DNA of 64,000 nucleotides, from positions 1,191-65,190 of the IMG/VR virus record IMGVR_UViG_3300033121_000332; one strand, 5' to 3'. Below the pieces are notes generated by a model that saw only the letters and a list, made by a program, of their open reading frames with translations, was not told the DNA's origin and did not search any database. This document shows, one piece after another, positions 20,203 to 57,977 of this stretch. Position 1 is the stretch's first letter, and every line of letters starts with the position of its first letter. Source of the DNA: a virus (Duplodnaviria; Caudoviricetes). A program made the position numbers and the translations under genes.

Positions 20203-20685
20203 TTATTCATAAAGTAATTGATTCTCCTGCTTGGCTCGGATTCCAAGCATCACCCAATAAGCTAATAAGGGAAACACGCCCGTACTATGACCAAGAATCA
20301 GAGACAGGGAGCCAGACATAAGGACGAAGCCAATATATCCCGGATGCCGAGAGAATTTATATGCACCGGATCTTACGATGCGCTGCGGGTATGCCAGATT
20401 TGGCATAAAGTAGGGATTGGATCTCATCGCCCATGCCACCAATGACATCCCCGGTAAAAAGAATATCACCCCTAATGCCACCTGTAGGAAGTTCGGCTGA
20501 TGTACTCCCCAAGTGATTTTTTCAATTATCCACGTCATCCATATTAGATGGTAGCAAAGGATGGCTATTCGCGGAAACTTTTCCGTCGCTTCCAGATTAT
20601 AATTCTGCTGGTGGGATGTGGCAAGATGGTCACTGATTGCCAACCAGTAGAAAATGTGCAATACAAATGCAATACAAGCGTTCAT
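20203..20685 (-). CDS. Isoprenylcysteine carboxylmethyltransferase / phospholipid methyltransferase (ICMT/PEMT) family membrane protein
   Basis: Multiple TM helices and IVRSGAYKFSRHPGYIG...RAKQENQLL family signature; ATG 20685 overlaps the upstream TGA. Confidence 0.85.
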   Translation of the reverse strand: MNACIAFVLHIFYWLAISDHLATSHQQNYNLEATEKFPRIAILCYHLIWMTWIIEKITWGVHQPNFLQVALGVIFFLPGMSLVAWAMRSNPYFMPNLAYPQRIVRSGAYKFSRHPGYIGFVLMSGSLSLILGHSTGVFPLLAYWVMLGIRAKQENQLLYE

Positions 20686-21134
20686 CAGATAAAAGCGGCT
20701 CCTACGGTGGCGGCTCCTTGGATAAGGCTTCCCCACAAGCCACTCCCTTGTTTGGGTTGGCTGTTAAATCCTGATGTTTTGGTGTTGACCATCTGAGGGG
20801 ATGAGTAGTTCATCAAGGATTCAAGTTGCGCCATCTTCAACCGATTCTGGTCATACGCCTGCTCGCGGTACGCCTGTCCTTCTTGCTGTCCCAACTCGCC
20901 CAATCCTGATCGAGTCATCTGCTCCCGCATCTCAGGGGTGGTGAACGCACCCATCGGATTCTGATACGTTTGCATCAGATCCCGCTTGGCCGCGCCAAAG
21001 CGATATTGCGTTGTTGGATCGGCCATCGGGGTGAAACCTTTAAACGCCTGATAGTCGGCAGTTTGAGGCTTCTCCATGAACCCGTATTCCTGTTTTTGCT
21101 CAAACGGCAATTGCTGTGTTTTCGGTTTTCCCAT
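20685..21134 (-). CDS. Probable small ejection/pilot protein
   Basis: Gln-rich helical body with C-terminal GLWGSLIQGAATVGAAFI amphipathic helix; follows a GNAT gene as in T7/P22-like layouts. Confidence 0.55.
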   Translation of the reverse strand: MGKPKTQQLPFEQKQEYGFMEKPQTADYQAFKGFTPMADPTTQYRFGAAKRDLMQTYQNPMGAFTTPEMREQMTRSGLGELGQQEGQAYREQAYDQNRLKMAQLESLMNYSSPQMVNTKTSGFNSQPKQGSGLWGSLIQGAATVGAAFI

Positions 21135-21648
21135 GATATTTCGTCCAATCTGCTCTTGTTAGCGAGTACGGTTGCCACGAATAATGCCAGCGACCATCTA
21201 TCTCAACTTCAGGCTCTCCGCAAAGCGTCAATCCGCAACTTTCGGCCAGCATCTTGCTCCCTTTATGAACATGGCCATTAAAGGTCGGAACCATCGTATA
21301 AATAAATGCCGCATCCATTTTATCAAATAAATCCCATCCTATCTCGTAGGTAGCCGCCGTTATTTTAACGGGATCTGATCCTTTTGGCGACGTGACGTGA
21401 AATAGATACCCACCATTAGATTCTTTCTGTATCGTAATGAGAGTGATCATCTTCTCACCCTCAAACACCGCCACGTCCACCTGTGAATTCTTTTTTGCGC
21501 GGTCAAGGTAGACAACCAGAAGATCAAATCCCCCCGTATGTGGAAACAATCGTGGCCGATCCTGCGTCCATCTGTACGCCAAAACGTACCAGATAACGTC
21601 TTTCTCAGGGTCAAGTCGGCGATATGTTATGGCGTCATCTTTTTCCAT
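21100..21648 (-). CDS. GNAT-fold protein (T7 gp13 / P22 gp14-like position)
   Basis: Beta-strand pattern and KGSKMLAESCGL motif-B-like segment; located between tail and ejection genes. Confidence 0.5.
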   Translation of the reverse strand: MEKDDAITYRRLDPEKDVIWYVLAYRWTQDRPRLFPHTGGFDLLVVYLDRAKKNSQVDVAVFEGEKMITLITIQKESNGGYLFHVTSPKGSDPVKITAATYEIGWDLFDKMDAAFIYTMVPTFNGHVHKGSKMLAESCGLTLCGEPEVEIDGRWHYSWQPYSLTRADWTKYHGKTENTAIAV

Positions 21649-22172
21649 ACTGCTGCACCGTTGGTCGAGTCAAGACAAATATAAGCGTCATCCGCTGTAG
21701 TATCGCACCAGATTGAACCGACCGCATAACCAGCCGCCGCGTCATCCGTGACACCTGGGGCGACTGCTGCCGCCAGATTGCTCTTTTTGGTGGCAATGGC
21801 ATCAATGCCAAGATTGGTTCGCGCTCCACTTGCCGATGTCGCGCCCGTTCCCCCATAAGCTACGCCAAGCGCATTCGTCAAAGTCAAAGTAGCAATGCCG
21901 GCTGTGCCTGTAATGGTCAACCCCGTGAATTGCGGCGACGACCCGGTAGAGATTGCCTGAGCAATGGACAGGGTAATGACCGAGCCACCGGGACTCACGG
22001 TGACATTTGATCCGGTGAACGTAAGATTGGGGCCAAGCAGTCCATTGATTGACTGAATGGCTCCCGTTACCGCCGCGCCAATCAGGATAGCCTGGTTCGC
22101 CTGTCCCGCCTGACCCTGCGCCAAGATAAACTCAGGGTCATTGGATACGTCAAAATCATATTCACTTCCCAT
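21627..22172 (-). CDS. Small tail/fibre-associated protein
   Basis: C-terminal GVTDDAAAGYAVGSIWCDTTADDAYICLDSTNGAAVWKK motif typical of phage fibre proteins. Confidence 0.6.
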   Translation of the reverse strand: MGSEYDFDVSNDPEFILAQGQAGQANQAILIGAAVTGAIQSINGLLGPNLTFTGSNVTVSPGGSVITLSIAQAISTGSSPQFTGLTITGTAGIATLTLTNALGVAYGGTGATSASGARTNLGIDAIATKKSNLAAAVAPGVTDDAAAGYAVGSIWCDTTADDAYICLDSTNGAAVWKKMTP

Positions 22173-22182
22173 AACTTTCCTC

Positions 22183-22211
22183 TTGACATTCTACCATTCC
22201 AGTCGTATTCT
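22183..22211 (+). promoter_or_regulatory. Sigma70-type promoter, antisense to the late operon
   Basis: TTGACA (22183-88), 17 nt, TATTCT (22206-11). Confidence 0.6.
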
Positions 22212-22217
22212 ACCACT

Positions 22218-22297
22218 GCCTATTCAGGTAAGAACCACAAATGACCACGCCTCCTGTGGTCAAAAGGGGGAGCCGCCCGCGCTCCCCCTTTAGTTTT
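22218..22297 (+). ncRNA. Candidate small RNA with GCCUCCU loop
   Basis: Promoter upstream; hairpin TGACCAC-GCCTCCT-GTGGTCA (22242-62); terminator downstream; no ORF. Ends are estimated. Confidence 0.45.
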
Positions 22298-22298
22298 T
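22263..22298. terminator. Bidirectional intrinsic terminator
   Basis: AAAGGGGGAGC-cgcccgc-GCTCCCCCTTT with T-rich tails on both strands. Confidence 0.8.
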
Positions 22299-24552
22299 AG
22301 TAGCGATTACTCCTGCTGGTATAATCCAGTAAAATTTCATCAAGTCTCGCCAAGTTAGGGTTGGTGGATGCCAGTGAGCATCGGACGGAAAATAGTCGTG
22401 CGCGAGGGACAAAAATGCGTTTAACCTCGGTTTGCCTGACTGGTTGGGTATCCGCTCCGGCTGTAGACATAGCAAAGGTGAGTGATCCACTATCAGAGTT
22501 TGTGCCATTCTGAATATCAACTATTGGAACAGACTCTTGCACCTGAGCCGCCCACACTCCCGCCGCCATGCTCGATGTCGAATACCCCGTCAAAGCAATG
22601 CTCCTGATCGTCTTGTCTAACCCGTCCTGCCCCAAATCCACAAAGGGAGTGGCAATGTATCCCGTTACCTGACTGGTTCCACTGTGCCATTTGTATATTT
22701 TCTCATTAGCAATGAAGTAAAGCTGCCCCGAAACCGTGGCCACACCCGAAACTGTCATATTGGCACTTGTCGATTCAATTACTATCGGAGTTGACCAGAC
22801 ATCGTAACGCAGCATATACATCAACACTTTGGTCGTGTAATAGCCGCTTCCATTGACGCTATCGTTGCTGTGGAAATAGCAAACCGCCTCATTGACAGGA
22901 TCGTATCCTACGCTAACCCTCTCCGGCGTGAAATTCTGGAATTCGTTAGCGACATCTGCCGCCCATGTGAACTCCATCGAGCCTTCATCCCCATCCGCAA
23001 TGGAGCGAGTCGGCCCGTAGGATGTATAGCCATACAACCGGCCATTGACGAATACCAAGCCTTGCGGATTTCTGAATCCGGCCCGCCAGAAGGGACGGGT
23101 CGTGATCGGTGACACCTGGTTGCCGCTGAGTGTCACCATATGCAATCGATTTTCCGTCATGCAAAACAGCCGGCCATTACCTTCCACGTATCCGATAATA
23201 TTTTCGGGCGGAGAAACAGCCACGCGTAGTTCAGCCGGGTAAGCATCAGGATTGTTTGGCTTGGATGGACGAATAACGGGGCCGGGAGCCGTATCCCCAA
23301 GCCTGATCACCACTCCCGCGCCGTCTGTAGCGTTAGGCGTCGGACTGACCGTCATTGACGTATCCGACGCAATCGCAATAACTTCATAATAGTCATTGTT
23401 GATATAGACGATCTGGCCACGCTGAATGTCCGTCAAAAAGGTTGTGGATGTTCCCGCTACCGTCGCATTTCCGCTTGTACGGATCACTGTACCATCAAGT
23501 TTCCGTCCGGGGCCATTACAACTCAAAAGAATCGGGTAGCCTTGGAGTGACGCGACAAAAGCCGCGTCAGGTGGTGCATCATTGTTAAAAGACAGCAAAG
23601 TACTTCCAGCAATTTCCGCATCAGTGTACTCAACATCGTAGGTTGACCCTCCCGCCGCCGACACCGACGCCGTAGTGATCCTCTCTATGAAATACCACGG
23701 CCCCTGAATTCCTGAACCGCTAAACAAACTTCCATAAATATCCCATGCATCCTGTCCACCCGTGGTATCCATCGCGGGAAAAGTAATGCGGATTTTATCT
23801 CCGGTGGCAAGCGTGACCTCTACTTTGTTCGAAGGGTTGTTGTATCCGCCAGTGGAAAGCCGGACAGGAACGATGCGAACAGAATAGACTCCTGCTTGCA
23901 TATTCTTTGTACCGCTGCCAGTTGCCGCCACCGTTGTCAGCGTAGGTGTAAGCATCCCTAACTTAGTGTAGGAATATGCTCCCGTTCCTGGGTTGTACAT
24001 TGCTATTTGAAGGCGCTTTGTGGCAGTCAAGCCGGGAGCGGTCAATCCCGCCCCATTCACTTTGACGACACCTTGTCCTACCGCTAAAAGTGTGCCTTGT
24101 GGAAATCGTTGGACTGAACCACGCGCCAAAGACACGCGAGAAATATCCACGTCCATTAGAATATGGGGGATCTTAATTGCGTATCCCGAACCGGATGCTG
24201 CCGGCGCGGGGGAAACTGTCATCGAAGTATTGGATGCAATATTCCGAACCTGGTATAACTGATTGTTGATCAAAATAGCTGACCCTACAATCAACTCTTG
24301 AAGAAAAACCGTGCTAGTCCCGGTGACAGTCGCCACCCCATTAGTAATAGCGGCTGTCCCGGTCAGAGTCGTAGCCGCCACGGTTTCTGAGATGTCCTCG
24401 TACCCCTTCCATGACTGCGTGAACAGGACATCCCCATTTCCCGTGACGATCTGGTTCAACCCGCGAAAAATATAACGCGGGTCATCCCCACTGTAAGGGG
24501 AATTCGGGCGATAGCCTCCGCTTGGTGTCCACGATATCCGGTTCTTTTTCAT
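22297..24552 (-). CDS. Tail nozzle / tubular protein B-like
   Basis: 751 aa, beta-rich; follows adaptor genes; C-terminal YIATPFVDLGQ..KTIRSI pattern typical of P22 gp10 / T7 gp12-like proteins. Confidence 0.65.
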   Translation of the reverse strand: MKKNRISWTPSGGYRPNSPYSGDDPRYIFRGLNQIVTGNGDVLFTQSWKGYEDISETVAATTLTGTAAITNGVATVTGTSTVFLQELIVGSAILINNQLYQVRNIASNTSMTVSPAPAASGSGYAIKIPHILMDVDISRVSLARGSVQRFPQGTLLAVGQGVVKVNGAGLTAPGLTATKRLQIAMYNPGTGAYSYTKLGMLTPTLTTVAATGSGTKNMQAGVYSVRIVPVRLSTGGYNNPSNKVEVTLATGDKIRITFPAMDTTGGQDAWDIYGSLFSGSGIQGPWYFIERITTASVSAAGGSTYDVEYTDAEIAGSTLLSFNNDAPPDAAFVASLQGYPILLSCNGPGRKLDGTVIRTSGNATVAGTSTTFLTDIQRGQIVYINNDYYEVIAIASDTSMTVSPTPNATDGAGVVIRLGDTAPGPVIRPSKPNNPDAYPAELRVAVSPPENIIGYVEGNGRLFCMTENRLHMVTLSGNQVSPITTRPFWRAGFRNPQGLVFVNGRLYGYTSYGPTRSIADGDEGSMEFTWAADVANEFQNFTPERVSVGYDPVNEAVCYFHSNDSVNGSGYYTTKVLMYMLRYDVWSTPIVIESTSANMTVSGVATVSGQLYFIANEKIYKWHSGTSQVTGYIATPFVDLGQDGLDKTIRSIALTGYSTSSMAAGVWAAQVQESVPIVDIQNGTNSDSGSLTFAMSTAGADTQPVRQTEVKRIFVPRARLFSVRCSLASTNPNLARLDEILLDYTSRSNRY

Positions 24553-40263: not shown

Positions 40264-40327
40264 TTAACCTAAAAGTTAATCTGGGAGGCGAGCAGTGACA
40301 TTAAGCTGCCTCCCTACCAGCCGGAAG

Positions 40328-44244: not shown

Positions 44245-44660
44245 TTGGAGCCGTATTTTTTCCAAAGGGATTCCTTACTTTTTACACCCCCCACCCCTAC
44301 CAAGGGTAAACTACATCTTTTTTTAACCCAGGTTGCTTCTACACCCACCCTACCCCATCTACTACCACCCCCCACCCCCCCCCACCCGTACCATTTGTCA
44401 AGGTGTAAATGTGAGGGCGATTTAAAGGGGTGACCCCCTACTTTCCCGCGATGCCAGGTATGGGTCTGTGGGGTACGGGGTAGTGGTGCACAGCGTGTAC
44501 CCTGCCGCAGCGCGTAGCAGGCTGGTGGCGAGCGTCCCCGCCTGCCGTCCCTGCCTGCCCTGCCGCAGCGTGTAGCCTGCCTGCCCTGCTAAGTACAGCG
44601 AGCGCAGCGTGTTAGCCTACCGGCCAGCCAGCCAGCGGGCGTTAATTCAATTCGTAAAAT
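44245..44660. repeat. Non-coding divergence region with C-tracts and short CCTG/CAGC repeats
   Basis: C-rich tract 44281-44392; CCCTGCCGCAGCG(C/T)GTAGC x2; CCTGCCTGCCCTGC x2; GCCAGCCAGCCAGC; genes diverge on both sides. Confidence 0.6.
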
Positions 44661-44694: not shown

Positions 44695-44744
44695 GCACTC
44701 ATCGCAGGCAATCACGCAGGCGAAACAGACTAACAGGAGGCAAC

Positions 44745-44972
44745 ATGAACCGATTCAGACTTCACCTTATTGATCCAATCTCCGGTGACTGGACAGCTGT
44801 CAACCATACAGTACAAGTAGAGGGAGGCATGACAGACGCTGACGTAGACAAGGCATTGCTGGCAGTGTTCCCTACGCTAAACCTTGACAACATATCAACC
44901 GACGGGGATGACTCCTCAGTCTATATTGAATTTGACGGTCAACTGGTCGCAGAATTCAGACGCGAACGCTAA
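44745..44972 (+). CDS. Small early protein
   Basis: ACAGGAGGC RBS before MNRFRLHLID. Confidence 0.75.
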   Translation: MNRFRLHLIDPISGDWTAVNHTVQVEGGMTDADVDKALLAVFPTLNLDNISTDGDDSSVYIEFDGQLVAEFRRER

Positions 44973-44983
44973 CAGGAGGCAAT

Positions 44984-45175
44984 ATGACTAAAGAGGAAAT
45001 TAAGACGCTGGAAAACGAACTACGCAAGTGCAGGCAAGATGTATTCTCCGACGATGAGGCCATCGCAGAGGCAGCACAGGAGCGTATATATGAAATCAAG
45101 GCATTGCTTCAGCTCGTTTATGATCGTCAGTGGGCGTCATCAATGTCTAACCGCAGCTACTTGGATATCTGCTAA
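44984..45175 (+). CDS. Small early protein
   Basis: ACAGGAGGC RBS. Confidence 0.75.
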   Translation: MTKEEIKTLENELRKCRQDVFSDDEAIAEAAQERIYEIKALLQLVYDRQWASSMSNRSYLDIC

Positions 45176-45186
45176 CAGGAGGCAAC

Positions 45187-45426
45187 ATGACATACACAAT
45201 CGATGCAATCCGCAAAGATAACAATGGAAAACTGCCAGCATGGGCCTGGCCGGGCGGATACCCTCTCTATTACTTGGATGAAAAAAACAATGTCCTTTGT
45301 CCAGAGTGTGCAAACAAAACAGGCTATTGTGCTGATGTAGTAGCCTGTGGCGTGAACTGGGAAGACGCGAATTTATACTGTGATGACTGCTCACAGCGTA
45401 TCGAGTCCGCATATGCGGAAGACTAA
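45187..45426 (+). CDS. Small early zinc-binding protein (AWPGGYP family)
   Basis: ACAGGAGGC RBS; AWPGGYPL, CPEC and CDDC motifs. Confidence 0.75.
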   Translation: MTYTIDAIRKDNNGKLPAWAWPGGYPLYYLDEKNNVLCPECANKTGYCADVVACGVNWEDANLYCDDCSQRIESAYAED

Positions 45427-45437
45427 CAGGAGGCAAT

Positions 45438-45662
45438 ATGATAGACGTAATGAATCTTTGCACATCGGAAATAATCACGTATGACACCAATGATCCAGTT
45501 GAGGCTGTCAAGCTGGCATTTCTGCAACACGACCGACACAATTTCAATACTTCGCAATACGCCGATATCCTGCCGACGTTAGGGTGCGCCGACAATGGCA
45601 AGCATACGGTAAGCTGCGGCAACTGGGCAGCGTTCAAAGACGGGCGAAGATTGCCGTTTTAA
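45438..45662 (+). CDS. Small early protein
   Basis: ACAGGAGGC RBS. Confidence 0.75.
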   Translation: MIDVMNLCTSEIITYDTNDPVEAVKLAFLQHDRHNFNTSQYADILPTLGCADNGKHTVSCGNWAAFKDGRRLPF

Positions 45663-45679
45663 TCTACAGGAGGCAAGCC

Positions 45680-45811
45680 ATGACTAAACTGATCGGCATC
45701 ATCCTGGTAGCTAGTGCGATTTACTGGTTTTGCACCTACTGGCCAAACACGGTGAGCAATGGGGCGATGGTCACGGCGCAGACGCAGATAACACGCAGCT
45801 TAAACAAGTGA
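45680..45811 (+). CDS. 43-aa single-TM early protein
   Basis: ACAGGAGGC RBS; MTKLIGIILVASAIYWFCTYW. Confidence 0.65.
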   Translation: MTKLIGIILVASAIYWFCTYWPNTVSNGAMVTAQTQITRSLNK

Positions 45812-45843
45812 TTAAGAGTTTAAGCATTTGTTTAACGCAATGT

Positions 45844-45875
45844 CCAGTCTTGACAATTGACAAGGCTGGTATAAT
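45844..45875 (+). promoter_or_regulatory. Extended -10 promoter overlapped by an inverted repeat
   Basis: CCAGTCTTG-N8-CAAGGCTGG followed by TATAAT (TGgTATAAT); the TTGACA lies only 14 nt upstream. Confidence 0.5.
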
Positions 45876-45892
45876 CAACACAGGAGGCAATC

Positions 45893-46144
45893 ATGACAAT
45901 TCTAGGTTTCGTAAAATGGGGACGAGATTTAATCCCGCACCTGCAATCGGAAGAGAATGCACCAAAGCTCCAGAATCGCGGAGACAATACGTTCTATGGG
46001 CAGGTTGATGTTTACTTGCCGGAACTCTTGGAGATGCTGGACGGCAAGGCATACGGATATGTGCGTATTGACTATGCTGATAGGCAAGGGGTGATTCTAT
46101 TCGCCGAGAATAACAGGCAAGACGGTTCTTTTAGTTTCAGCTAA
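45893..46144 (+). CDS. Small early protein
   Basis: CACAGGAGGC RBS. Confidence 0.75.
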   Translation: MTILGFVKWGRDLIPHLQSEENAPKLQNRGDNTFYGQVDVYLPELLEMLDGKAYGYVRIDYADRQGVILFAENNRQDGSFSFS

Positions 46145-46156
46145 ACACAGGAGGCA

Positions 46157-46357
46157 ATGATGACTTTTAACGAATTCAAGAAAGAATATTACCGGCTAGT
46201 GAAGATTATCACTAGTCACTGGCCGGATGACAAGGAAAGCATGGAAGCAAAATCATCAATCAGTGAGCTGGTGGAAGAGTATCCTGACTTTGAAGCACAG
46301 ATTGATGAACTTGATTGTGAGCAGCAAATCCCAAACATGTCTTATTTGGTACTATAG
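46157..46357 (+). CDS. Small acidic early protein
   Basis: CACAGGAGGC RBS. Confidence 0.75.
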   Translation: MMTFNEFKKEYYRLVKIITSHWPDDKESMEAKSSISELVEEYPDFEAQIDELDCEQQIPNMSYLVL

Positions 46358-46366
46358 GAGGCAATC

Positions 46367-46690
46367 ATGAAACGAGCTATTAAAAACGGGAATCCGTTCC
46401 ACCTGCTACCTGAAGAGTTCATTCTCCATTCTTTGACAGTGGCAGGAGTGCATAAATTCTGGCCGTATCGGATACTCGGTAATATTCGAATGGTGACAGC
46501 GAGTAATACCCACTTTATCAGCGATATTGAATCCGCTTGCGTAGTAGTTGGTGAAGTTGGCGAGTGTAAGAGTTTGACACTGCGGGTTAGCGTGTGCTTT
46601 CCAGATGACGGTAACAAAGTGATGCCTGGAATCATTCGCTACACATTGACGAAGCTGACGCACAAGGTGACACTTAAACTGGATCAATAA
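46367..46690 (+). CDS. Early protein
   Basis: AGGAGGC RBS. Confidence 0.7.
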   Translation: MKRAIKNGNPFHLLPEEFILHSLTVAGVHKFWPYRILGNIRMVTASNTHFISDIESACVVVGEVGECKSLTLRVSVCFPDDGNKVMPGIIRYTLTKLTHKVTLKLDQ

Positions 46691-46707
46691 TTCCAGCAAT
46701 TATCCGC

Positions 46708-46736
46708 TTGACACAACCATTGATTGAGAGTAAGAT
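46708..46736 (+). promoter_or_regulatory. Early sigma70 promoter P2
   Basis: TTGACA-17-TAAGAT. Confidence 0.8.
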
Positions 46737-46795
46737 GCAAGCATAACGAAACGGATTGACAATCAACCCAAATTGAAACGGACAACGGAGGCTAT

Positions 46796-47062
46796 ATGAT
46801 CAAAGAAACCAGAGAAGAAAGAGACAAGCGCATCGCCAAGCTGGAAGAAACCACATGGGCAAAGCAGGAAGCAAAAAAGACAAAGTATGTTCCCGTGTGG
46901 GTACTTCAAATCGACTATGGCGGAGGCTGGCAAGATGAAACCTGGAGCGCGACAAGGGCATGTGCATATGGCGAAGCGGTAACTTATCGCCAAAACTGTA
47001 TTTATCCGGTTCGCGTATTCTGCCGGCGGATTAAACGGGAAGAAGTCTTTCCCGCCGTTTAA
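46796..47062 (+). CDS. Small early protein
   Basis: GGAGGC RBS. Confidence 0.7.
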   Translation: MIKETREERDKRIAKLEETTWAKQEAKKTKYVPVWVLQIDYGGGWQDETWSATRACAYGEAVTYRQNCIYPVRVFCRRIKREEVFPAV

Positions 47063-47093
47063 CAAATCAGATCATTAAATCAACGGAGGCATT

Positions 47094-47354
47094 ATGAAAT
47101 TGACACCTTATGGGGCAAACATGAACACGGTAGAATTCAATGATGGCCGGATTGTTCTATTCAGCTATAAAACAGCGGTTGCGGTATTCATTCCCGGCGA
47201 GGGGATCAAGCGCACGGCTACGAAATGGTCAATGACTACTACCAAGCATATCAATAAATGGGTTGCTGGAACATTCTCCCCGAACGTGACAGTTGAAACG
47301 GTTGCACAGGCAGAGATTGAAACCCTGGCGGCAGAATCACAGGAGGCAGCATGA
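47094..47354 (+). CDS. Conserved small phage early protein
   Basis: GGAGGC RBS; VLFSYKTAVA...KWSMTTTKHINKW motif of a widespread phage family. Confidence 0.75.
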   Translation: MKLTPYGANMNTVEFNDGRIVLFSYKTAVAVFIPGEGIKRTATKWSMTTTKHINKWVAGTFSPNVTVETVAQAEIETLAAESQEAA

Positions 47355-47950
47355 ATATCTTTTCAATTTTCAGTGACATCACATGCGGGGAGGCTTGCTG
47401 GTACGCTAAAGAAGATGTTTGCAAGTGTTCCTGTGGCGGGAAGAATCACGGTTGTCTGCGAACCTCAGATGGCCACCGACCAACACGAACCGCAAAGATA
47501 GACGGTGAAAGATATGAACTCGTGGCAGTCGGGAAGAATCTTTACTCCGAAGCTGCACAATTAACGCAGGGTCTAGGATGGCAATCGATTGAACACTTTG
47601 AAGCGTGGTCGCCCCTGGAAGATTCCAAAACCATAATGTCTTATCATCATTCCTATGACAGACACGGCACAACATCGGGAGCAGTTATCAGGCTGAAACC
47701 CGCAAGCAAAGCGCAGATTGCAAACTGGCCAGAGTTAGCAGCTTTTCAGGATATCCCACGATATGAGGCGGTTTATCTGTTGTGGATCAGATTGGAAGTG
47801 CCGAAGCAGTATCGATGCGCTCACGATTGTCAAAAGTGCGCTGAGAAATATCAGGAAATAGCAGCGGTTATACTTCCCCCACAATGGGCCGGAAAAGTGG
47901 AAACGGTGACGCTTACATCAAAATATTATCCGGTTGAGGAGGCAGCATGA
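47351..47950 (+). CDS. Cys-rich early protein
   Basis: CACAGGAGGC RBS; CGEACWYAKEDVCKCSCGGKNHG metal-binding segment. Confidence 0.7.
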   Translation: MNIFSIFSDITCGEACWYAKEDVCKCSCGGKNHGCLRTSDGHRPTRTAKIDGERYELVAVGKNLYSEAAQLTQGLGWQSIEHFEAWSPLEDSKTIMSYHHSYDRHGTTSGAVIRLKPASKAQIANWPELAAFQDIPRYEAVYLLWIRLEVPKQYRCAHDCQKCAEKYQEIAAVILPPQWAGKVETVTLTSKYYPVEEAA

Positions 47951-48132
47951 CCAAGTGGCAAGCAAAATTGAACGACGCAGAGAAGCGCAAAGCGGCATTG
48001 TCCCGCAACCAGGCAATCCGTGAGCAATGGCTACACGGTGACGCGCTGGAAACTGGCCGGCAGTCTGAGCCTATCCCAAAGGTGAGCAGGGGTATTTTAT
48101 TTAACCTGCTTGCATGGATCTGGCCGTTCTAA
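47947..48132 (+). CDS. Small early protein
   Basis: AGGAGGC RBS; ATGA overlap. Confidence 0.65.
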   Translation: MTKWQAKLNDAEKRKAALSRNQAIREQWLHGDALETGRQSEPIPKVSRGILFNLLAWIWPF

Positions 48133-48153
48133 CAATCACAGGAGGAGGATGAC

Positions 48154-48414
48154 ATGAGAGGAAATTTACTGACCAGTAACTATCAAAAGGATTTGGTATT
48201 CATCGGAACGGATAACCCCGACATACCCGAACATGAGTTTGTATCGTTCATTGAACAGGAAATGGATATTGAATCGGGACGCGACTTTGACGGCATTGAA
48301 GTTGAAGACATGACCCCTGAACACACAAACACGCGACGCGATTTACAATCATATTGTAAATTGTCAAATGATTACGAATTCGTTTATTTTGTTCGGTTGC
48401 GTCCGGTTCGTTGA
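48154..48414 (+). CDS. Small acidic early protein
   Basis: CACAGGAGG RBS. Confidence 0.7.
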   Translation: MRGNLLTSNYQKDLVFIGTDNPDIPEHEFVSFIEQEMDIESGRDFDGIEVEDMTPEHTNTRRDLQSYCKLSNDYEFVYFVRLRPVR

Positions 48415-48418
48415 TAAA

Positions 48419-48982
48419 TTAAGCCGCGACATCATCGGCGGTTGCTTCTTTGAGAAGTTTAACCAGATGCGGTTTGTTCTCTTCCAGATATTTGACAGCT
48501 TCTTCTTCGGTGCATCCGTGTTCGGATTGCACGAGTTGAAGCGCATGAGTGTAACCCTGGATTACAACGGAGCGAACATGACTGACGCTTTCCACCCTAG
48601 AAGTCGCTTCACCAGATAGAAGCTGAGTCACATCGGTTACGATTTTAATACCACCGATCAGATCACGGAATGAGACATTCTCATTTTCTAATGCTTGGGT
48701 TGCCCGATCAAAAAGCATATGTTGGAGATTCTTTGCCTTTTCGAGAATCGATTCTCGCAACATCTCTTTAGCTTCAGCGGTTCGCGGGTGAATCTTTTTC
48801 CCCCTCGACCAATCGCGCACCGCATCAGTTGATACCCCGGCAGATTTAGCGGCATACGCTTCAGGATAGATAATTCCTGAGCTGCGCTCACCATATTCAA
48901 GTGCAAGCAAAGCGGATGCCTGGGTGACAGCGCGATCCGGTATTTGATCAATCGGGTTTTCAGGGATTAGGGAAATTGACAT
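48419..48982 (-). CDS. HTH DNA-binding protein, terminase-small-subunit-like
   Basis: AAKSAGVSTDAVRDWSR HTH, helical middle, QLLSGEATSRVE motif. Confidence 0.5.
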   Translation of the reverse strand: MSISLIPENPIDQIPDRAVTQASALLALEYGERSSGIIYPEAYAAKSAGVSTDAVRDWSRGKKIHPRTAEAKEMLRESILEKAKNLQHMLFDRATQALENENVSFRDLIGGIKIVTDVTQLLSGEATSRVESVSHVRSVVIQGYTHALQLVQSEHGCTEEEAVKYLEENKPHLVKLLKEATADDVAA

Positions 48983-48983
48983 A

Positions 48984-49361
48984 TTAGATCAGTTCGATGA
49001 TGGCGAATAGTCCATACTGTAAAGCGGATTCTCTCTCTCTTTCCAGAGGGGAGCAGGAACGGGTTGAATTATCGTAAATGTACCATTTCTCGATGACTTG
49101 AGAATTGGTGTAAATTGAGGGGGAAGAGTGGGCGAATTCGCTTCGCTTGAAAGCGTGAAAGCTCCCATCTCGGATAATCACCACGTAATCAGGATTGATT
49201 TTTGCAATCCTGGGGGATGTTTGAATAAAACAGGGTAGATTACACAGTTCCTTGAACCAATTACGATGAGTTTTATAGATGTAACTTCCATCAATGATTA
49301 AGCATATGGAAGGATCAGACAATAAACGGCGATATTTGCGCTGGCTCCGAGGTGTACCCAT
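48984..49361 (-). CDS. Hypothetical protein (AT-rich)
   Basis: 125-aa ORF ending 1 nt before the next gene's start. Confidence 0.5.
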   Translation of the reverse strand: MGTPRSQRKYRRLLSDPSICLIIDGSYIYKTHRNWFKELCNLPCFIQTSPRIAKINPDYVVIIRDGSFHAFKRSEFAHSSPSIYTNSQVIEKWYIYDNSTRSCSPLERERESALQYGLFAIIELI

Positions 49362-49511
49362 AAGGCAAAGCTACGCTGTAAATGGTTCGATGGCTTCAGG
49401 TGCTTCCTAAACCGATTCCCTTTTGAGAATCAGAGGTCAGCTTTAAAACTATGAACGAATTGAATTTATAGCACAAAACCGAAAATAATACAAGCAGAGT
49501 GAATTATTTTG

Positions 49512-49540
49512 TTGACACAGACAGCGATTGAGAGTAAGAT
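49512..49540 (+). promoter_or_regulatory. Early sigma70 promoter P3
   Basis: TTGACA-17-TAAGAT; spacer nearly identical to P1. Confidence 0.8.
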
Positions 49541-49587
49541 ACAGACATCGAAGCGGCAATGGGGCCGCCGATGAACAGGAGGCAGAT

Positions 49588-49836
49588 ATGAAATTAAACA
49601 ACAACCAAAAAATGGAAATCAAAAGATTGGCAGTAGCAGCAGCGCAGGCATTCGTTGACGAATTTGACGAACCCTTAGATTCCAGCAAAACCGATTGGGA
49701 TGCGGTTGCGTGGCAAGAAGACAGGCGCAAATTGTCATTCCGCGCCAAACTGAAAGCAAGCAGCGACTTGGACGCTGAGGCGTGGGAATTGTACAGCACC
49801 ACATTGGAAGCTAAAACAGGGACACTTTGCAACTAA
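49588..49836 (+). CDS. Small early protein
   Basis: ACAGGAGGC RBS before MKLNNNQK. Confidence 0.75.
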   Translation: MKLNNNQKMEIKRLAVAAAQAFVDEFDEPLDSSKTDWDAVAWQEDRRKLSFRAKLKASSDLDAEAWELYSTTLEAKTGTLCN

Positions 49837-49887
49837 CCCACACCCCACAACCCCGCAGGCCACGGCCTGCACTACGAGGAGGCAGAT

Positions 49888-50040
49888 ATGGAGACAATCA
49901 GATACAGCAAAGACGCGAGCATCTGCATCGTGCATAACAGCGAAACAGGTGAGTATTCCTGTCCGACGCAAGGCGACATGGACACGTTGCCGGTCGGCCC
50001 TGACCTGACCGACGAAGAGATATTATTACTAGACAGCTAA
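49888..50040 (+). CDS. 50-aa acidic early protein (below the ORF-track cutoff)
   Basis: AGGAGGC RBS; METIRYSKDASICIVHNSETGEYSCPTQGDMDTLPVGPDLTDEEILLLDS. Confidence 0.65.
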   Translation: METIRYSKDASICIVHNSETGEYSCPTQGDMDTLPVGPDLTDEEILLLDS

Positions 50041-50091
50041 CCTAACTCCCCCCCACAAACCCGCAGGCCACGGCCTGCACAGGAGGCAATC

Positions 50092-50331
50092 ATGGCACGA
50101 CTCGATTTAATCAAATTCACGACACGCGACGGTAAACCCTGCAAAGAATACGGCTTGCAGGAAGTGAACGAAGACGGCAAATTGCTAAGGCTTTACGACA
50201 ACGAAGCGGATCAGTTTACTTCGTTCCCGAACGCGAAATTCAGCTTTGTGCGAACGCTCGGCACAATGGACGATTCAGACGACTTCTGGAATCTGGTTGC
50301 GGAGTGCAAGCAGATCAACCCGCAATCTTAA
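50092..50331 (+). CDS. Small early protein
   Basis: CACAGGAGGC RBS. Confidence 0.75.
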   Translation: MARLDLIKFTTRDGKPCKEYGLQEVNEDGKLLRLYDNEADQFTSFPNAKFSFVRTLGTMDDSDDFWNLVAECKQINPQS

Positions 50332-50341
50332 GGAGGCAATC

Positions 50342-50866
50342 ATGAGCGTTAATGTAAGAATACAATTACCGGACAATGCAAGAATAAACAATGTCGCCAA
50401 AGTTATCGGCATCGCGGCGGGATTACCCGCAGTCTATCGAAAGTTTAACCATGGGGGAAGTGGATATGTGGAAGTCCACGGAATAAGAGTATCACCTAGC
50501 AGTGTCCCCGAATGCGCCAAGATTACTTGGCGGGAAGGGGTTGATACTGGTGATTCCCATTATGTCTTGTATCACTTCGAATGGGAAGATGGGGGGCGTG
50601 GTTTGTTGCCACCCTCAACACCTTTCTGGTGTGCGGTCGGATTGAAACTGGTGAGCCTGTTTGGTGGCTCAATTCAATTCCAAGATTGTAGCAGTGACGT
50701 TGATTTCCGTTTCCCTGTAAATCCGCTTTGTGGTGCAACAAATGGTGACGAGTGGGAAGCGTGGCAACAGGCGATGCTGGCAGTCGGGCCGCTTACCGAA
50801 GGCGATTTAAGATATGCCCGAACATTCGCAGCATATAAAAGGGGGAACGACAATGAAAACCTATGA
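50342..50866 (+). CDS. Early protein
   Basis: AGGAGGC RBS before MSVNVRIQ. Confidence 0.7.
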   Translation: MSVNVRIQLPDNARINNVAKVIGIAAGLPAVYRKFNHGGSGYVEVHGIRVSPSSVPECAKITWREGVDTGDSHYVLYHFEWEDGGRGLLPPSTPFWCAVGLKLVSLFGGSIQFQDCSSDVDFRFPVNPLCGATNGDEWEAWQQAMLAVGPLTEGDLRYARTFAAYKRGNDNENL

Positions 50867-51053
50867 GGAATTTGTGGCCGAATTGGAAACCTACGCAAAC
50901 ATATGGGTTACGCCGGACGAAGACAATTCAATCACGTCATTGCAAGCATTGGACAAAATGGACGCGCTTGCGGCTGCTTATCCTGAATACATGGCACAAT
51001 TCAGGCGCAAGTCGCTGGAAAAAGCGGCGAAACTTATAGCAAAGGGGGAATGA
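50853..51053 (+). CDS. Small early protein
   Basis: GGGGG RBS before MKTYEEF. Confidence 0.65.
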   Translation: MKTYEEFVAELETYANIWVTPDEDNSITSLQALDKMDALAAAYPEYMAQFRRKSLEKAAKLIAKGE

Positions 51054-51054
51054 C

Positions 51055-51315
51055 ATGGCCAAGAAAATGTACCGAAACGCAGCAGTTGAAAAGCGTGGCT
51101 GGATTCATGTTGAGGACAAGCACCCGCCTGATGCTTGGGTATGGAGCCGCAATAATACGGGCGGTGTTTACCAGCGGTTGTGTGGTGGCGTTCTCACCAA
51201 TCAAGGCTGGCGATATGATTCATGGTTAGGATTCCCGCTGTTTGAGGATGCGAGTTACTGGCGACCGCTTTCATCGGGAGTGCCGGCTGAGGATTGCAAG
51301 GGGATGGAACGGTAA
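51055..51315 (+). CDS. DUF551-like protein
   Basis: GWIHVEDKHP...SYWRPL pattern. Confidence 0.55.
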   Translation: MAKKMYRNAAVEKRGWIHVEDKHPPDAWVWSRNNTGGVYQRLCGGVLTNQGWRYDSWLGFPLFEDASYWRPLSSGVPAEDCKGMER

Positions 51316-51344
51316 AAACACGTACACTTAAAAAGGAGAATGAA

Positions 51345-51512
51345 ATGAACATGTCATATTGCAGATTTTCAAACACTTTGGACGACTTACGCGATTGCTA
51401 CGATGCTATGGGCGATGACGATAAAATGGCTGATTTGAGCGAAGAAGAAGCAAAAGCAAAGGAAAATCTTATAAAACTCTGCCAGCGTATCGTAGATGAT
51501 TACGGAGAATAA
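51345..51512 (+). CDS. Small conserved phage protein
   Basis: AAGGAG RBS; MSYCRFSNT..DLRDC motif. Confidence 0.7.
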   Translation: MNMSYCRFSNTLDDLRDCYDAMGDDDKMADLSEEEAKAKENLIKLCQRIVDDYGE

Positions 51513-51514
51513 AA

Positions 51515-51913
51515 ATGAAAACCATAACACCACAGCAACACGCTGAAATGATGGAATTCTTGGACGACTTGGTTCTGGCAGTCAGAGTCAGAAACGTAGG
51601 AGAAGATGATAACTACATCAGGATATATTCCGATGAGTTTGACAGGGTTATCAACCTGCGAGACTCCTACTTGGCGATGAAAGCCAGAGAAGATGAAAGA
51701 TTGGCGCATCTGCGACGAATCGCACCAAAAATATCACCGGAGAAGGTGGAGAAAGCCAAAGTAAATCTGGCTAAGGGGCGGGACAAGCTGCAAAAAATGA
51801 AAGAAGATCCCGAATTCCGCCAGAAGTGCAATGAGAACCTGGCGAAAGCAAGAGCAAAGCGAAAACCCCGCCGTGTAAAAGCGGTTACGGCTGGCGAGAT
51901 TGACGAAACTTAG
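51515..51913 (+). CDS. Hypothetical protein with basic C-terminus
   Basis: 132 aa; last gene of the rightward early arm. Confidence 0.65.
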   Translation: MKTITPQQHAEMMEFLDDLVLAVRVRNVGEDDNYIRIYSDEFDRVINLRDSYLAMKAREDERLAHLRRIAPKISPEKVEKAKVNLAKGRDKLQKMKEDPEFRQKCNENLAKARAKRKPRRVKAVTAGEIDET

Positions 51914-52154
51914 CCTCGCGGATGTCGTCGCGCAATATGGCGATGGCATCCTTTAATTCTTCTCGATCCGCCTTAGTCGCAAGTGCCTGGGAGATAGCAT
52001 CTAGTTTGTGGTTAACTTCCAGAATATACTCTTTGAATTCTGTCCGGCTGATTTTGAAAAATGACGAAAAAAGCCACCCGATCAGCAAGCCGCTAACGCC
52101 GGCGATGACATTTTCCAGTGAGCGTAGAACAGAAAACTCAGTGAGGATTGACAT
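51885..52154 (-). CDS. Single-TM coiled-coil lysis-module protein
   Basis: VIAGVSGLLIGWLF TM followed by a coiled coil; start placed at MSILTEF. Confidence 0.55.
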   Translation of the reverse strand: MSILTEFSVLRSLENVIAGVSGLLIGWLFSSFFKISRTEFKEYILEVNHKLDAISQALATKADREELKDAIAILRDDIREAKFRQSRQP

Positions 52155-52299
52155 TTTCACCGTCCTTGCACCCCTTATCCCACTCATACAGGGATTGAGC
52201 GGATAAACCGTGCGCGTGTCTGTTGATGGTTGCACCGCGCAGTGAGATGTTTACCCGCTCAAATCTGAGATGGTGGATCACCCCCTATCGTCAATGACA

Positions 52300-52509
52300 T
52301 TATCCAACGGTGTTATTGGCATCCAATTTCGCCTTGAACCTGTTAATCATTTCCGATGCGGTTGCTTCGTTTTGAGCCGACTGCTTTTCGGCTGAGTCGA
52401 TGAGTTCATCGATGCTCATGCCGGAGCGTTTCGCCTCTTTGAGAATCTCGATGTATAGTTGGAGGAAAAACACCCCCAGGCTGTTGATCCATGTCAGAAT
52501 GTTGTCCAT
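52300..52509 (-). CDS. Small lysis-module protein
   Basis: AGGGG RBS; amphipathic N-terminus. Confidence 0.6.
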   Translation of the reverse strand: MDNILTWINSLGVFFLQLYIEILKEAKRSGMSIDELIDSAEKQSAQNEATASEMINRFKAKLDANNTVG

Positions 52510-52518
52510 AAATTCCCC

Positions 52519-53007
52519 TTACTTCTTTTTGGCTGCTGCCACCAGGTCAATCAGCGACTTGAGGGTAGCGTTCAACGAATTGAGCAGATCCACAATTTGT
52601 TTCCTGGTATTCGGATTGATGCTCAGGAAATCGGGATTACTGATCAGAGTATTGATGGTAGCGGTCGATGTATCGAGGATTGCCAGCATCCTTGCCGATC
52701 CCTCCTCCGGCAGCACAATAGTTGTATTGCCCGATGCGTCGGTGACTTTGTAGGATTTAGCGACCTGAATCAGTTCACGATTGGCAATGTTGACCTGGTT
52801 TAATGCCTGGGTTGCTTTCAAAGCGGCAGCGGTCGAGATTGACCCGTCACCTTCCAAGCGGTTGATCATCGTCAAACCCGTACCAACATAACCGGCTACC
52901 CGGTCAGTGTCTTTGACGAATTCCCGCCCCGGATCACCGCAGGCAGTAAAGAGTAAACTGAAAGCGACCACTACGGAGATTGCCGCAGTTGATAGTTTTC
53001 TTTTCAT
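52519..53007 (-). CDS. Lipoprotein (possible spanin component)
   Basis: Lipobox LLFTA-C; downstream of holin and endolysin. Confidence 0.6.
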   Translation of the reverse strand: MKRKLSTAAISVVVAFSLLFTACGDPGREFVKDTDRVAGYVGTGLTMINRLEGDGSISTAAALKATQALNQVNIANRELIQVAKSYKVTDASGNTTIVLPEEGSARMLAILDTSTATINTLISNPDFLSINPNTRKQIVDLLNSLNATLKSLIDLVAAAKKK

Positions 53008-53019
53008 AATTCTCCAATC

Positions 53020-53217
53020 TTATTTAGAAGTATCCTTGGCGAAGATGCCGAGGACGATGACTCCGACAGGGACGATGTGAGCGATCACCCAATTCAGGGT
53101 TGATTCCTCAACGACGATCCCGTAGGTTTTGGCGATGCCGGCCAAACCGAGAACCAATCCAGTAACGGTTGTTTTCCAGTTGGTCAGCAAGAATTCCTTG
53201 ATTTGATCCAGAAACAT
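53020..53217 (-). CDS. Holin-like membrane protein
   Basis: AGGAGA RBS; two TMs; NWKTT...AKD signature; adjacent to the endolysin. Confidence 0.7.
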   Translation of the reverse strand: MFLDQIKEFLLTNWKTTVTGLVLGLAGIAKTYGIVVEESTLNWVIAHIVPVGVIVLGIFAKDTSK

Positions 53218-53285
53218 TTTCTTTCTCCTTTCGAAATATCGATACCGACCACAGCCGGCATTTCCACAATAACAAAAATTCCGCA

Positions 53286-53927
53286 TTACGCAATCCCAAG
53301 TAGGGACATGTTGGCTTTGTACTTTTTCAGCCTTCCGGGGTAGCCATTCATCCCGCCATTGATGCGCCTAGTAATCTCCCTGAAATTACGGGCGTCGGCC
53401 AGATCATTGCACCCTCGATCCTTCCAGTACCAGGCGGCGACTCTTAATCCCACTTCAGGCGTGGCCACTTGATCAGGATTGTCTTCCAGATCCAAGTTTA
53501 AAGCCTCTCCCGCAGCTTTGTAATTGGCGCGGCCCGTGAGCTGAATCGGGCCTCGACCTCGATATCTCCACCCATCCCCCGAACTCTCATCTCCGTTTCC
53601 CATTCGGTTAGCATAAACCCGGTTGGCGATCTTGACGGGATTGCCGGCATACTCGCTGGCCACCTGGCTATTAAACCGTGTCGGCCAGACTGTGAGTAAT
53701 CGAGACGATGAATAGTTTAGATTTTCAAGCCACAGGGTCAGATCCCCCGACTCATACGCCAGTTGAGCTGCAAAGGCGGCAAGCCGGAGCGATGTATTGA
53801 TCTCAAACTCGGTGCAGGCAGCGTCAAAGGGAACCAGATAATTAGCAGCGTCTCCCGGTGACAGGCGGGAGAACATCGCAAGGAATTTGGCCGGCTCCAA
53901 TGCTACGACCGTCATAACATATCCCAT
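53286..53927 (-). CDS. Endolysin, glycoside hydrolase family 19
   Basis: AAFAAQLAYESG, YANRMGNG..SGDGWRYRGRGPIQLTGRANY and ITRRINGG motifs. Confidence 0.92.
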   Translation of the reverse strand: MGYVMTVVALEPAKFLAMFSRLSPGDAANYLVPFDAACTEFEINTSLRLAAFAAQLAYESGDLTLWLENLNYSSSRLLTVWPTRFNSQVASEYAGNPVKIANRVYANRMGNGDESSGDGWRYRGRGPIQLTGRANYKAAGEALNLDLEDNPDQVATPEVGLRVAAWYWKDRGCNDLADARNFREITRRINGGMNGYPGRLKKYKANMSLLGIA

Positions 53928-54067
53928 AATAAAAAATGGCCCACTACTTGATAGGCTAAGTCTTTGCTCTTACCTTAGTCTACCGTTCATGGGCGCGTTC
54001 CGCAGGGATGAATCTGCGAACAGTGCATGTAAACTCACACAAACTAAACACTCACAGGATACTCCCC

Positions 54068-54358
54068 TTATTTGGGTTTGGCAAGCGTGGCGGCGCGGTA
54101 TTTATCCACCCACGATTGACAGTATTTGGCGACTCTTTCGGTGTACGCGGTACACAGATTAGTGGTGTCATTGTAGCGGTTATCGTGGGCGGCTTGCCCA
54201 ATGGCGTCCTCTGCCTCGTCCCATGCTTTCCCCGATACGCTGAAGGTATCAGGGCATTCACCGTTTAGGCTTACCAACTCCTTCACGCAGTCTGTGACTA
54301 TCCGGTTGCAGTGCCGGAAAGTCGCTTGCATCACTTGTTCTGACTTGTTGAGTTCCAC
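54068..54358 (-). CDS. Hypothetical protein
   Basis: AGGAGGC RBS + GTG. Confidence 0.65.
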   Translation of the reverse strand: MELNKSEQVMQATFRHCNRIVTDCVKELVSLNGECPDTFSVSGKAWDEAEDAIGQAAHDNRYNDTTNLCTAYTERVAKYCQSWVDKYRAATLAKPK

Positions 54359-54367
54359 TGTTGCCTC

Positions 54368-56128: not shown

Positions 56129-56415
56129 TTCAGCCTCCACGTCTCGTAGCCTTTCGCCTTGCCTTCGCTTTTGAACTGCTCCCACGCTGCAAAGAATTGA
56201 CCTATCGTGAACTTGTCGTGTGGGGCGTGATACCTGGCAGCGTTCAAGGCCACGGCTTTCCAATACTTCGCCGGCACTTCGCCCACCAGTGCCTCATACC
56301 ACGCTCTCGCTAGGCTGTCCATCTCTTGCTCGTCGAGCGTCCTCAAACACGTCAGCAAACGTGCGCGGCTTAATAAACTGGTCAGGCCGCTCAGAAGGGT
56401 TTCCTTTCCAAACAT
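56125..56415 (-). CDS. Putative helicase-loader-like small protein overlapping the initiator 3' end
   Basis: GAGGCAATG start at 56415 (alternative 56514); position between initiator and helicase. Confidence 0.45.
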   Translation of the reverse strand: MFGKETLLSGLTSLLSRARLLTCLRTLDEQEMDSLARAWYEALVGEVPAKYWKAVALNAARYHAPHDKFTIGQFFAAWEQFKSEGKAKGYETWRLK

Positions 56416-57229: not shown

Positions 57230-57263
57230 AATTTCTCCTACAAAAATAAAGTTCGCTAAACGC

Positions 57264-57292
57264 TTGACACCGGGGCGATGTCCTTCTACACT
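57264..57292 (+). promoter_or_regulatory. Sigma70-type promoter, antisense to the replication operon
   Basis: TTGACA (57264-69), 17 nt, TACACT (57287-92). Confidence 0.65.
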
Positions 57293-57298
57293 GGCTTC

Positions 57299-57372
57299 AA
57301 CTTGTTCGTTTCAAGCATCGTGATTCCGTCACGAAGCCTCCAAAAAGGGAGGGGTTAGTCGCCCTCCCTTTT
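57299..57372 (+). ncRNA. Candidate antisense small RNA in the initiator leader
   Basis: Promoter, hairpin TCGTGA-ttccg-TCACGA, AAGCCTCC linker and terminator; no ORF. 5' end estimated. Confidence 0.5.
57343..57372. terminator. Bidirectional intrinsic terminator
   Basis: AAAAGGGAGGG-gttagtcg-CCCTCCCTTTT. Confidence 0.8.
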
Positions 57373-57378
57373 ACAATT

Positions 57379-57807: not shown

Positions 57808-57977
57808 TTCGTCCTCCTGAAAACACGAATCCCGCCATTTTAGTTATACTTCCGACCAAAGAAGTGCAACGTAAAAGTGGCGGGATTGTTACCGCGTCGA
57901 ATAAACTGGTTTTATGCTCTTACGCTGCTCTATCTTCTTTGGTCGGATGCACAGAATACATCAGCGTCCCCTCACTG

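Follow-up and report, generated by a model that had tools for sequence, protein, structure and literature searches.

The DNA analysed here (the window, 64,000 nucleotides in length) comes from an uncultured viral contig of 65,190 bp, estimated to be 71% complete, of which it covers bases 1191-65190. Sequencing records whose contigs carry this phage include ERZ27309394, SRR27686863, DRR404984 and SRR23073225. Comparison with the deposited phages of the GenBank phage collection gave neither a DNA match nor a terminase-protein match to the window; a tRNA search of the window found none, and no Rfam family was matched at gathering scores anywhere in it. Structural and late genes, including those for the terminase, the major head protein and the tail fibre, occupy the minus strand from about 44.2 kb down to position 1. 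They are followed by a cluster of small genes on the plus strand (44,745 to about 52.8 kb) and by a replication module with a primase-helicase on the minus strand (53-60.5 kb). The feature under study sits in a 124-nt gap (22173-22296) between two minus-strand tail genes. On one side lies the gene for a 751-aa tail fibre (22297-24552), whose stop codon (22297-22299) touches a terminator; on the other, downstream, lies the gene for a 181-aa tail protein (21627-22172), which has its own ribosome-binding site (RBS), AAGAGGAAAG, at 22175-22184. Read along the minus strand, the gap shows the tail-fibre stop, a TTTT terminator, a hairpin presenting AGGAGGC, two copies of TGGTAGAAT, the RBS and the ATG.

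On the plus strand, the gap reads as a candidate small-RNA unit (22183-22298). A -35 hexamer TTGACA (22183-22188) is separated by 17 nt from a -10 hexamer TATTCT (22206-22211), which together with 22212 forms TATTCTA and thus also contains a minus-strand -10, TAGAAT. From the position of the -10, transcription would start at about 22218 +/- 2. According to the predicted fold, a single-stranded 5' leader (22219-22241) would be followed by a 7-bp hairpin, TGACCAC/GCCTCCT/GTGGTCA (22242-22262), with GCCUCCU exposed in the loop (22249-22255). The unit ends in a bidirectional intrinsic terminator (22263-22298) made of AAA, a GC-rich 8-bp stem (22266-22273/22281-22288) and TTTAGTTTTT; on the minus strand, the same terminator comes after the tail-fibre stop codon and ends in TTTT. 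The hexamers, being intergenic and within the 16-18 nt spacing used as a generic criterion for small-RNA promoters, are accompanied on the same strand by an intrinsic terminator of the generic kind (8-bp GC stem, AAA/UUU flanks, tail UUUAGUUUUU), which is the top plus-strand terminator of the 13-32 kb region. The predicted 80-nt RNA folds with -33.3 kcal/mol (z = -4.8).

The promoter, the 7-bp hairpin, the GCCTCCT loop and the terminator had all been described in a first-pass annotation of this DNA, and were found where it had placed them, as were the two TGGTAGAAT copies on the minus strand (22188-96 and 22207-15), which may be extended -10 promoters of the sense strand or else operator repeats, and which overlap the plus-strand promoter of the unit. 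The same annotation had spoken of an RNA of about 75 nt without an open reading frame; the fold is as described for the predicted 80 nt, but a plus-strand ORF of 19 codons does exist (ATG 22241 to TAG 22300). It has no Shine-Dalgarno (SD) sequence upstream. On the sense strand, the predicted hairpin presents the exact complementary 7-nt loop, and this second hairpin of the gap was also scored as terminator-like on the minus strand in a generic scan. Mini-ORFs following the SD-like motif on the sense strand were considered and rejected, because the GTG is only 1 nt away and the TTG and GTG frames are 6 and 4 codons long, respectively. Likewise, TGGTAGAAT-like motifs were rejected as a late-promoter class, since 18 were found against 11.5 expected, with no enrichment elsewhere.

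It should be noted that the match of the unit's promoter (10/12) is by itself at chance frequency in a generic scan, which returned 20 promoter-like sites in 19 kb against 18.8 in shuffles, that is, no excess. The match becomes significant only when the site is taken as one of a class of promoters that this phage has of its own. TTGACA with TAnnnT 16-18 nt downstream occurs nine times in the window, while 1.3 occurrences are expected and the shuffle maximum is 5; the spacer is exactly 17 nt in 8 of the 9. Six of these eight TTGACA-N17-TAnnnT sites are placed to drive early or middle genes. Five of them (44666, 46708, 49512, 60616 and 63287) lie 40-50 nt ahead of an RBS-bearing plus-strand gene, and the sixth (57981, minus strand), whose -10 is identical to the TATTCT of the unit, precedes a structured leader of about 135-140 nt. 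The other two, at 22183 and 57264, have no ORF. Both orphan promoters are located in gaps inside minus-strand gene blocks and face against them, and about 80 nt beyond each there is a hairpin flanked by U-tracts on either side. Only in the gaps of these two units were terminators seen that have a U-tract on each strand; A-tracts on the 5' side give the plus-strand U-tract there. The other gaps of the late operon have a one-way terminator directly followed by an RBS, with neither a plus-strand U-tract nor an antisense promoter.

The second orphan site begins a twin unit on the plus strand (57264-57372), composed of TTGACA-17-TACACT, a 16-nt leader, a hairpin, an unpaired AAGCCUCCAAAAA (with GCCTCC at 57336-41) and a bidirectional terminator (57347-57372) formed by GGGAGGG/CCCUCCC and then UUUU; its predicted fold has z = -5.2. 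The twin unit, which contains no ORF, is antisense to the leader of a gene for a 311-aa protein, of which P0122 is a 69% homolog. It has neither a symmetric -10 nor a sense partner promoter. The best RBS match of its motif is of the GGAGGCUU type, in the replication module (58968: -16.3 kcal/mol). In strain L054 the gene upstream, and hence the flank, is different, yet the plus-strand tail is still U-rich. The sense strand at the twin unit shows GGAGGC, 4 nt, and then a GTG with an 11-codon ORF, a mini-ORF that is shortened by a 1-nt deletion in L054.

The loop of the first unit, GCCUCCUGU(G), is the complement of an RBS motif of the early genes, (C)ACAGGAGGC. There are 11 copies of ACAGGAGGC in the window against 0.5 expected; ten are on the plus strand between 44733 and 50087, each 3-5 nt before an ATG, and the eleventh is the complement of the loop. 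Four of the ten extend to CACAGGAGGC. This count agrees with the earlier claim of exactly ten copies at early-gene RBSs, four of them over 10 nt, and these ten sites are the proposed targets in trans. One extra copy of a 9-mer per 64 kb is not rare, as the expectation of 0.5 indicates; what counts is its location in a loop that has a promoter on one side and a terminator on the other. Taken more widely, about 17 early genes share the consensus GGAGGCA(A/G)nnATG. Over a span from 44733 to 63356, GGAGGC(A/U) is used not only by these roughly 17 early genes but also by several genes of the replication module and by the one at 63356; it differs from GGAGGU, the canonical complement of the 16S 3' end. 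Late structural genes, as had been claimed, mostly carry RBSs of the AGGAGA(A) type, against GGAGGC(A) in early and middle genes.

Binding was computed by seed duplexes and by cofolding, in which intramolecular structure is charged; full-length duplexfold gave meaningless long-loop structures and was dropped. Seed duplexes of the loop region reached -18.9 to -22.0 kcal/mol on 14 early RBSs, and none of 34 late ones fell below -13.4. In cofolding, the median net binding was -8.7 kcal/mol for 17 GGAGGC early leaders versus -3.85 for 34 late ones (Mann-Whitney p = 1.5e-4), and shuffling of the loop abolished the preference for early RBSs in 12 of 12 variants. Both calculations quantify the complementarity between loop and RBS, the pairing itself being a prediction; it would span only 9-10 nt, 2-3 of which are bound in the stem and would first have to be released.

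More than 120 homologs of the tail fibre are known, on contigs of 62-77 kb. In near-identical strains (98.2-98.5% identity; about 1.5-1.8% overall difference) the unit is kept, with one SNP in the gap, and this similarity is uninformative on constraint. In about 25 more distant relatives, no more than 19 nt separate the tail-fibre gene from the gene after it, or the two overlap (stop/start). Since that next gene is homologous to the 181-aa gene and yet coupled to the tail fibre, the gap is an insertion. Among the tail-fibre relatives examined (metagenome and Logan), only one, L039 (run SRR21707647), has a gap at this place (166 nt); it is 64% identical in the tail fibre and 57% in the downstream protein. 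The two gaps cannot be aligned except for an antisense CTTGACA-N14-TCGTAT, located at the same place relative to the downstream ATG, in whose spacer 1 of 14 bases is identical. Conserved hexamers with a free spacer are the pattern that selection for a promoter would produce. The sense TGGTAGAAT repeats are not conserved in L039, which retains the -35 and TCGTAT without them, and the possibility raised in the first-pass annotation that TATTCT is a mere by-product of these repeats is thus contradicted. The -10 of L039 is TATAAA, without the T at -7. The RNA predicted for L039 has SD-like GCAGGAGUA loops and an internal UUUCUCC, and lacks a GCCUCC anti-SD loop. The L039 gap (L039:5236-5401) also contains TACTCCTGC twice on the gene strand, one copy being within the terminator loop, and a well-placed GGAGAAATCAATG followed by a 6-codon ORF.

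All the relatives that share the RBS repeat are near-identical to the window. In the next tier of relatives the repeat is missing, as are the promoter class and both units. G001 and G002, two complete IMG/VR relatives with 42% and 31% tail-fibre identity, show neither a repeated RBS motif nor orphan units of a comparable kind, and the primase relatives L086 and L087 (62-64% primase identity) are without the ACAGGAGGC repeat, the promoter class and the twin unit. One exact match to the 19-mer of the hairpin in IMG/VR (L035) lies in an unrelated high-GC coding region and was judged to be due to chance. No extended similarity was found between the gap and the early region.

We propose that the gap 22173-22296 is an autonomous small-RNA gene facing against the late operon. 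A host sigma-70 promoter of the phage's early-promoter class would produce a transcript of about 75-80 nt, stopped by the bidirectional intrinsic terminator and consisting of a single-stranded leader, a 7-bp hairpin with exposed GCCUCCU and an A-tract. The unit would represent an inserted non-coding antisense 'moron' between tail genes that are adjacent in nearly all relatives, and the twin unit would follow the same design. A plus-strand unit is supported by the enriched promoter class, by the twin, by bidirectional terminators found only there, and by the L039 hexamers with their scrambled spacer, and on these grounds we consider it probable that a plus-strand RNA is made. A point against such an RNA is the strain SNP (22242, T to C), which leaves 6 bp on the plus strand and a U.G pair on the minus strand, so that pairing at the base of the hairpin is kept on the minus strand and not on the plus strand. 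If the RNA is stable, its C-rich loop would most likely base-pair with AGGAGGC-type SD sequences, and two routes are conceivable. In cis, the partner may be the perfectly complementary loop of sense read-through RNA; in trans, it may be the RBSs of the GGAGGC class, those of early and middle genes, whose translation would be damped as the RNA accumulates. That the gap holds a real small-RNA gene working by loop pairing of either kind has, in our judgement, about an even chance.

A class-wide repression of early genes in trans is more doubtful. It is favoured by the match, over 9-10 nt, to the motif that recurs most often in the genome, and by the presence of GCCUCC in the twin. On the other hand, the RNA of L039 has no anti-SD loop and carries SD-like loops instead, and a promoter of the early class would make the RNA together with its proposed targets. 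As regards the latter objection, RegB of phage T4 is likewise an early product that destroys early messages (PMC1702504). In addition, the unit is absent from nearly all relatives and hence is not a core switch. The hidden transcription unit of the first-pass annotation has accordingly gained ground through its class membership, the twin, the terminators and the L039 hexamers, while the class-wide silencing that was attributed to it is still conjectural. In its broadest form, the proposal is that two RNAs (22219-22298 and 57299-57372) with exposed GCCUCC read a GGAGGC 'dialect' and shut down temporal gene classes; we regard this as a rather speculative possibility.

Because the AGGAGGC motif lies in the same orientation as the local genes and appears there as an SD-like loop, an explanation on the sense strand or in cis is possible, and cis-antisense action is a rival equal to silencing in trans. 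The plus promoter could be the other face of a bidirectional promoter that sets the timing of the 181-aa gene, RNA polymerase bound in one orientation excluding the other. The match to the early RBSs would then be incidental, or a relic of a sense RBS, and the short RNA would be a contained by-product or a countertranscript pairing loop-to-loop with sense read-through RNA. TATTCTA (22206-22212) is indeed TATTCT on the plus strand and a TG-extended TAGAAT on the minus strand, with -11A and -7T reciprocally paired (22207 and 22211), which is the canonical geometry of bidirectional promoters with a symmetric -10 (PMC10268837; also PMC12825309). The plus promoter and the TG-extended sense TAGAAT thus compete for the same bases, and both sense TGGTAGAAT copies overlap the plus promoter. 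The divergent RNA described in PMC10268837 is also non-coding and antisense; here, however, a perfect -35 and a terminator of its own belong to the 'divergent' side. This perfect -35, with its 17-nt spacer, argues for selection on the plus direction. The exactly complementary 7-nt loop of the sense hairpin and the retention in L039 of the promoter, and not of the anti-SD loop, fit action at the promoter or in cis, as does the twin, whose position antisense to the 311-aa leader with its GGAGGC, GTG and 11-codon ORF resembles the countertranscript control of replication genes. Against this, the L054 deletion shortens that mini-ORF, the twin is not symmetric and has no sense partner, and the unit at 22183 has no sense ORF after the SD-like motif (1 nt to GTG). 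Moreover, the RNA misses the downstream RBS and covers only the upstream stop codon, so that a target in cis would exist only on read-through RNA, and an identity over 9-10 nt with the genome's most frequent repeated motif, together with GCCUCC in the twin, is an unlikely coincidence. On balance, promoter-level or cis-only action seems to us a serious rival, though less likely than not.

It is also conceivable that the gap contains no functional plus-strand RNA and is a sense junction left by module exchange, which would comprise the terminator after the tail fibre, another, weak terminator hairpin (with TTTGTGGTT behind it) and, for the next genes, extended -10 promoters in tandem, the plus 'promoter' and the RBS complement being due to chance. 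Several of the data above are compatible with this explanation, namely promoter-like sites as numerous as in shuffles in the generic scan, the chance expectation of 0.5 per window for the 9-mer, the terminator-like score of the second hairpin on the minus strand and a strain SNP that keeps pairing only on that strand; in addition, a terminator followed by an RBS is a common arrangement between late genes here. A chance origin is difficult to reconcile with the enrichment of the promoter class, with the location of both orphan sites in gaps and of terminators with two-sided U-tracts some 80 nt on, and with L039, where the hexamers are kept with a scrambled spacer and the sense repeats are not. 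We therefore hold it to be unlikely. Least probable of all is that the split between GGAGGC and GGAGA is read by a protein, a RegB-like nuclease or RegA-like repressor among the unannotated early proteins, and that the RNA is unrelated to it: the RBS dichotomy is real, and T4 RegB cuts early mRNAs at the GGAG of their SD, by which a class of early messages is inactivated (PMC1702504, PMC3014915), but none of the 20 early-region proteins tested had a Pfam match, and two orphan promoter-terminator units with GCCUCC would be left unexplained.

As far as analogy can tell, the known system closest in logic to the proposed small-RNA gene is the C4 RNA of phages P1 and P7. C4 is a phage antisense RNA of about 77 nt whose exposed loops pair with the ribosome-binding region of icd and block its translation, and this target region is not transcribed from the opposite strand of C4's own DNA. 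Similarly, the loop of the unit is complementary over 9-10 nt to ten RBSs located elsewhere. The two have no sequence similarity, and C4 is processed from the operon transcript of its target and has one target locus, while the unit has its own promoter and terminator, lies 22 kb from its candidate targets (up to 17) and belongs to another transcription unit. The OOP RNA of lambda and the sar RNA of P22, which are counted as phage antisense controls (PMC5415839), are also RNAs of about 70-80 nt with a sigma-70 promoter directed against the neighbouring genes and an intrinsic terminator; OOP works through RNase III according to references given in PMC5869508. OOP, however, overlaps the 3' end of cII by tens of nucleotides, and the RNA of the unit, ending at about 22296-22298, would overlap only the tail-fibre stop. 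Unlike sar, which overlaps the ant RBS, it would start at about 22218 and not reach the RBS of the 181-aa gene (22175-22184).

The Firmicutes RNAs RsaE/RoxS and RNAIII likewise present a C-rich anti-SD motif in a hairpin loop followed by a terminator, but they are encoded by the host and have metabolic mRNAs as targets. RsaE (Rfam RF01820) was the top sub-threshold match, with 22.2 bits against a gathering score of 79, and the unit is not a member of that family. Lambda encodes the Hfq-dependent small RNAs PreS/LPR1 and LPR2, which together with StxS are phage-encoded, trans-acting RNAs, some of them located in the late operon (bioRxiv 10.1101/2024.10.31.621285), so that phage small-RNA genes in such places have precedent. 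They differ in acting mainly on host mRNAs or on single phage targets, and none of them is reported to match an RBS common to a whole gene class. Inactivation of a whole class of early messages through the SD motif GGAG is instead a property of T4 RegB, itself made early (PMC1702504), which is a protein nuclease and not an RNA; no homolog was detected here by Pfam among 20 early-region proteins. Finally, like a phage moron, the unit has its own promoter and terminator between genes that are adjacent in about 25 relatives, and it departs from classical morons in being non-coding and antisense.

Proteins such as the nuclease RegB, the repressor RegA and modifiers of the polymerase are known to bring about the temporal shut-off of phage early genes. 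If the trans-acting role were true, a whole gene class would be switched off in a new and very compact way, by an RNA that reads an RBS variant common to the class and specific to the phage, and the difference in RBS type between early and late genes would be accounted for. As the RNA equivalent of RegB/RegA in T4, it would also be the first phage riboregulator to act against the RBSs of a whole gene class. The minimal reading, in which a non-coding antisense 'moron' with its own promoter and bidirectional terminator is inserted between tail genes and the replication module holds its twin, is unusual as well. The underlying observation is real and the transcription unit is well supported by the evidence of the sequence; the regulatory claim is attractive and unproven.

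Some further features of the window deserve mention. The C-terminal part of the 181-aa tail protein (residues ~130-180; window 21627-21800, minus strand) is a domain of about 50 aa that recurs in thousands of large proteins, with up to 23 copies per protein (5752 hits at E<=1e-3); a full-length look-alike of the protein is known from one representative only. Further along the tail operon, the window has an ICMT/PEMT-like gene at 20203-20736, in the place of which the 98%-identical strains L036 and L037 have a 258-aa gene of the PAPS-reductase family, a difference that amounts to a cassette swap. Directly after the terminator of the unit, in the 3' end of the tail-fibre gene, the plus strand has TTAGTA-17-(TG)TATAAT (22297-22325), a perfect extended -10 facing antisense into that gene; about two TGnTATAAT are expected by chance per window. 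A hairpin with the stem GGGAGGC/GCCUCCC (40283-40316) is located just past the stop of a 109-aa gene, ahead of a small ORF that is itself followed by the terminase gene, and has a U-tract on neither strand.

In the replication module, a GGGGGAGAGAGA/(CT)n tract (56729-56760, plus strand) was scored as several overlapping hairpins. The promoter TTGACA-17-TATTCT on the minus strand (57805-57981) would yield a leader for a 142-aa gene with a very long stem (14 + 12 bp) and a fold of -48 kcal/mol (z = -4.9), in which an alternative, interleaved pairing of AATCCCGCCA and TGGCGGGATT is possible close to the RBS. Between late and early genes, the divergent control region (44260-44640) contains the repeats CCCCCCACCCC(T/G)ACCA (three copies), CCTGCCTGCCCTGC (three copies) and CCCTGCCGCAGCG(C/T)GTAGC (two copies), all of which are upstream of the first early promoter (44666).
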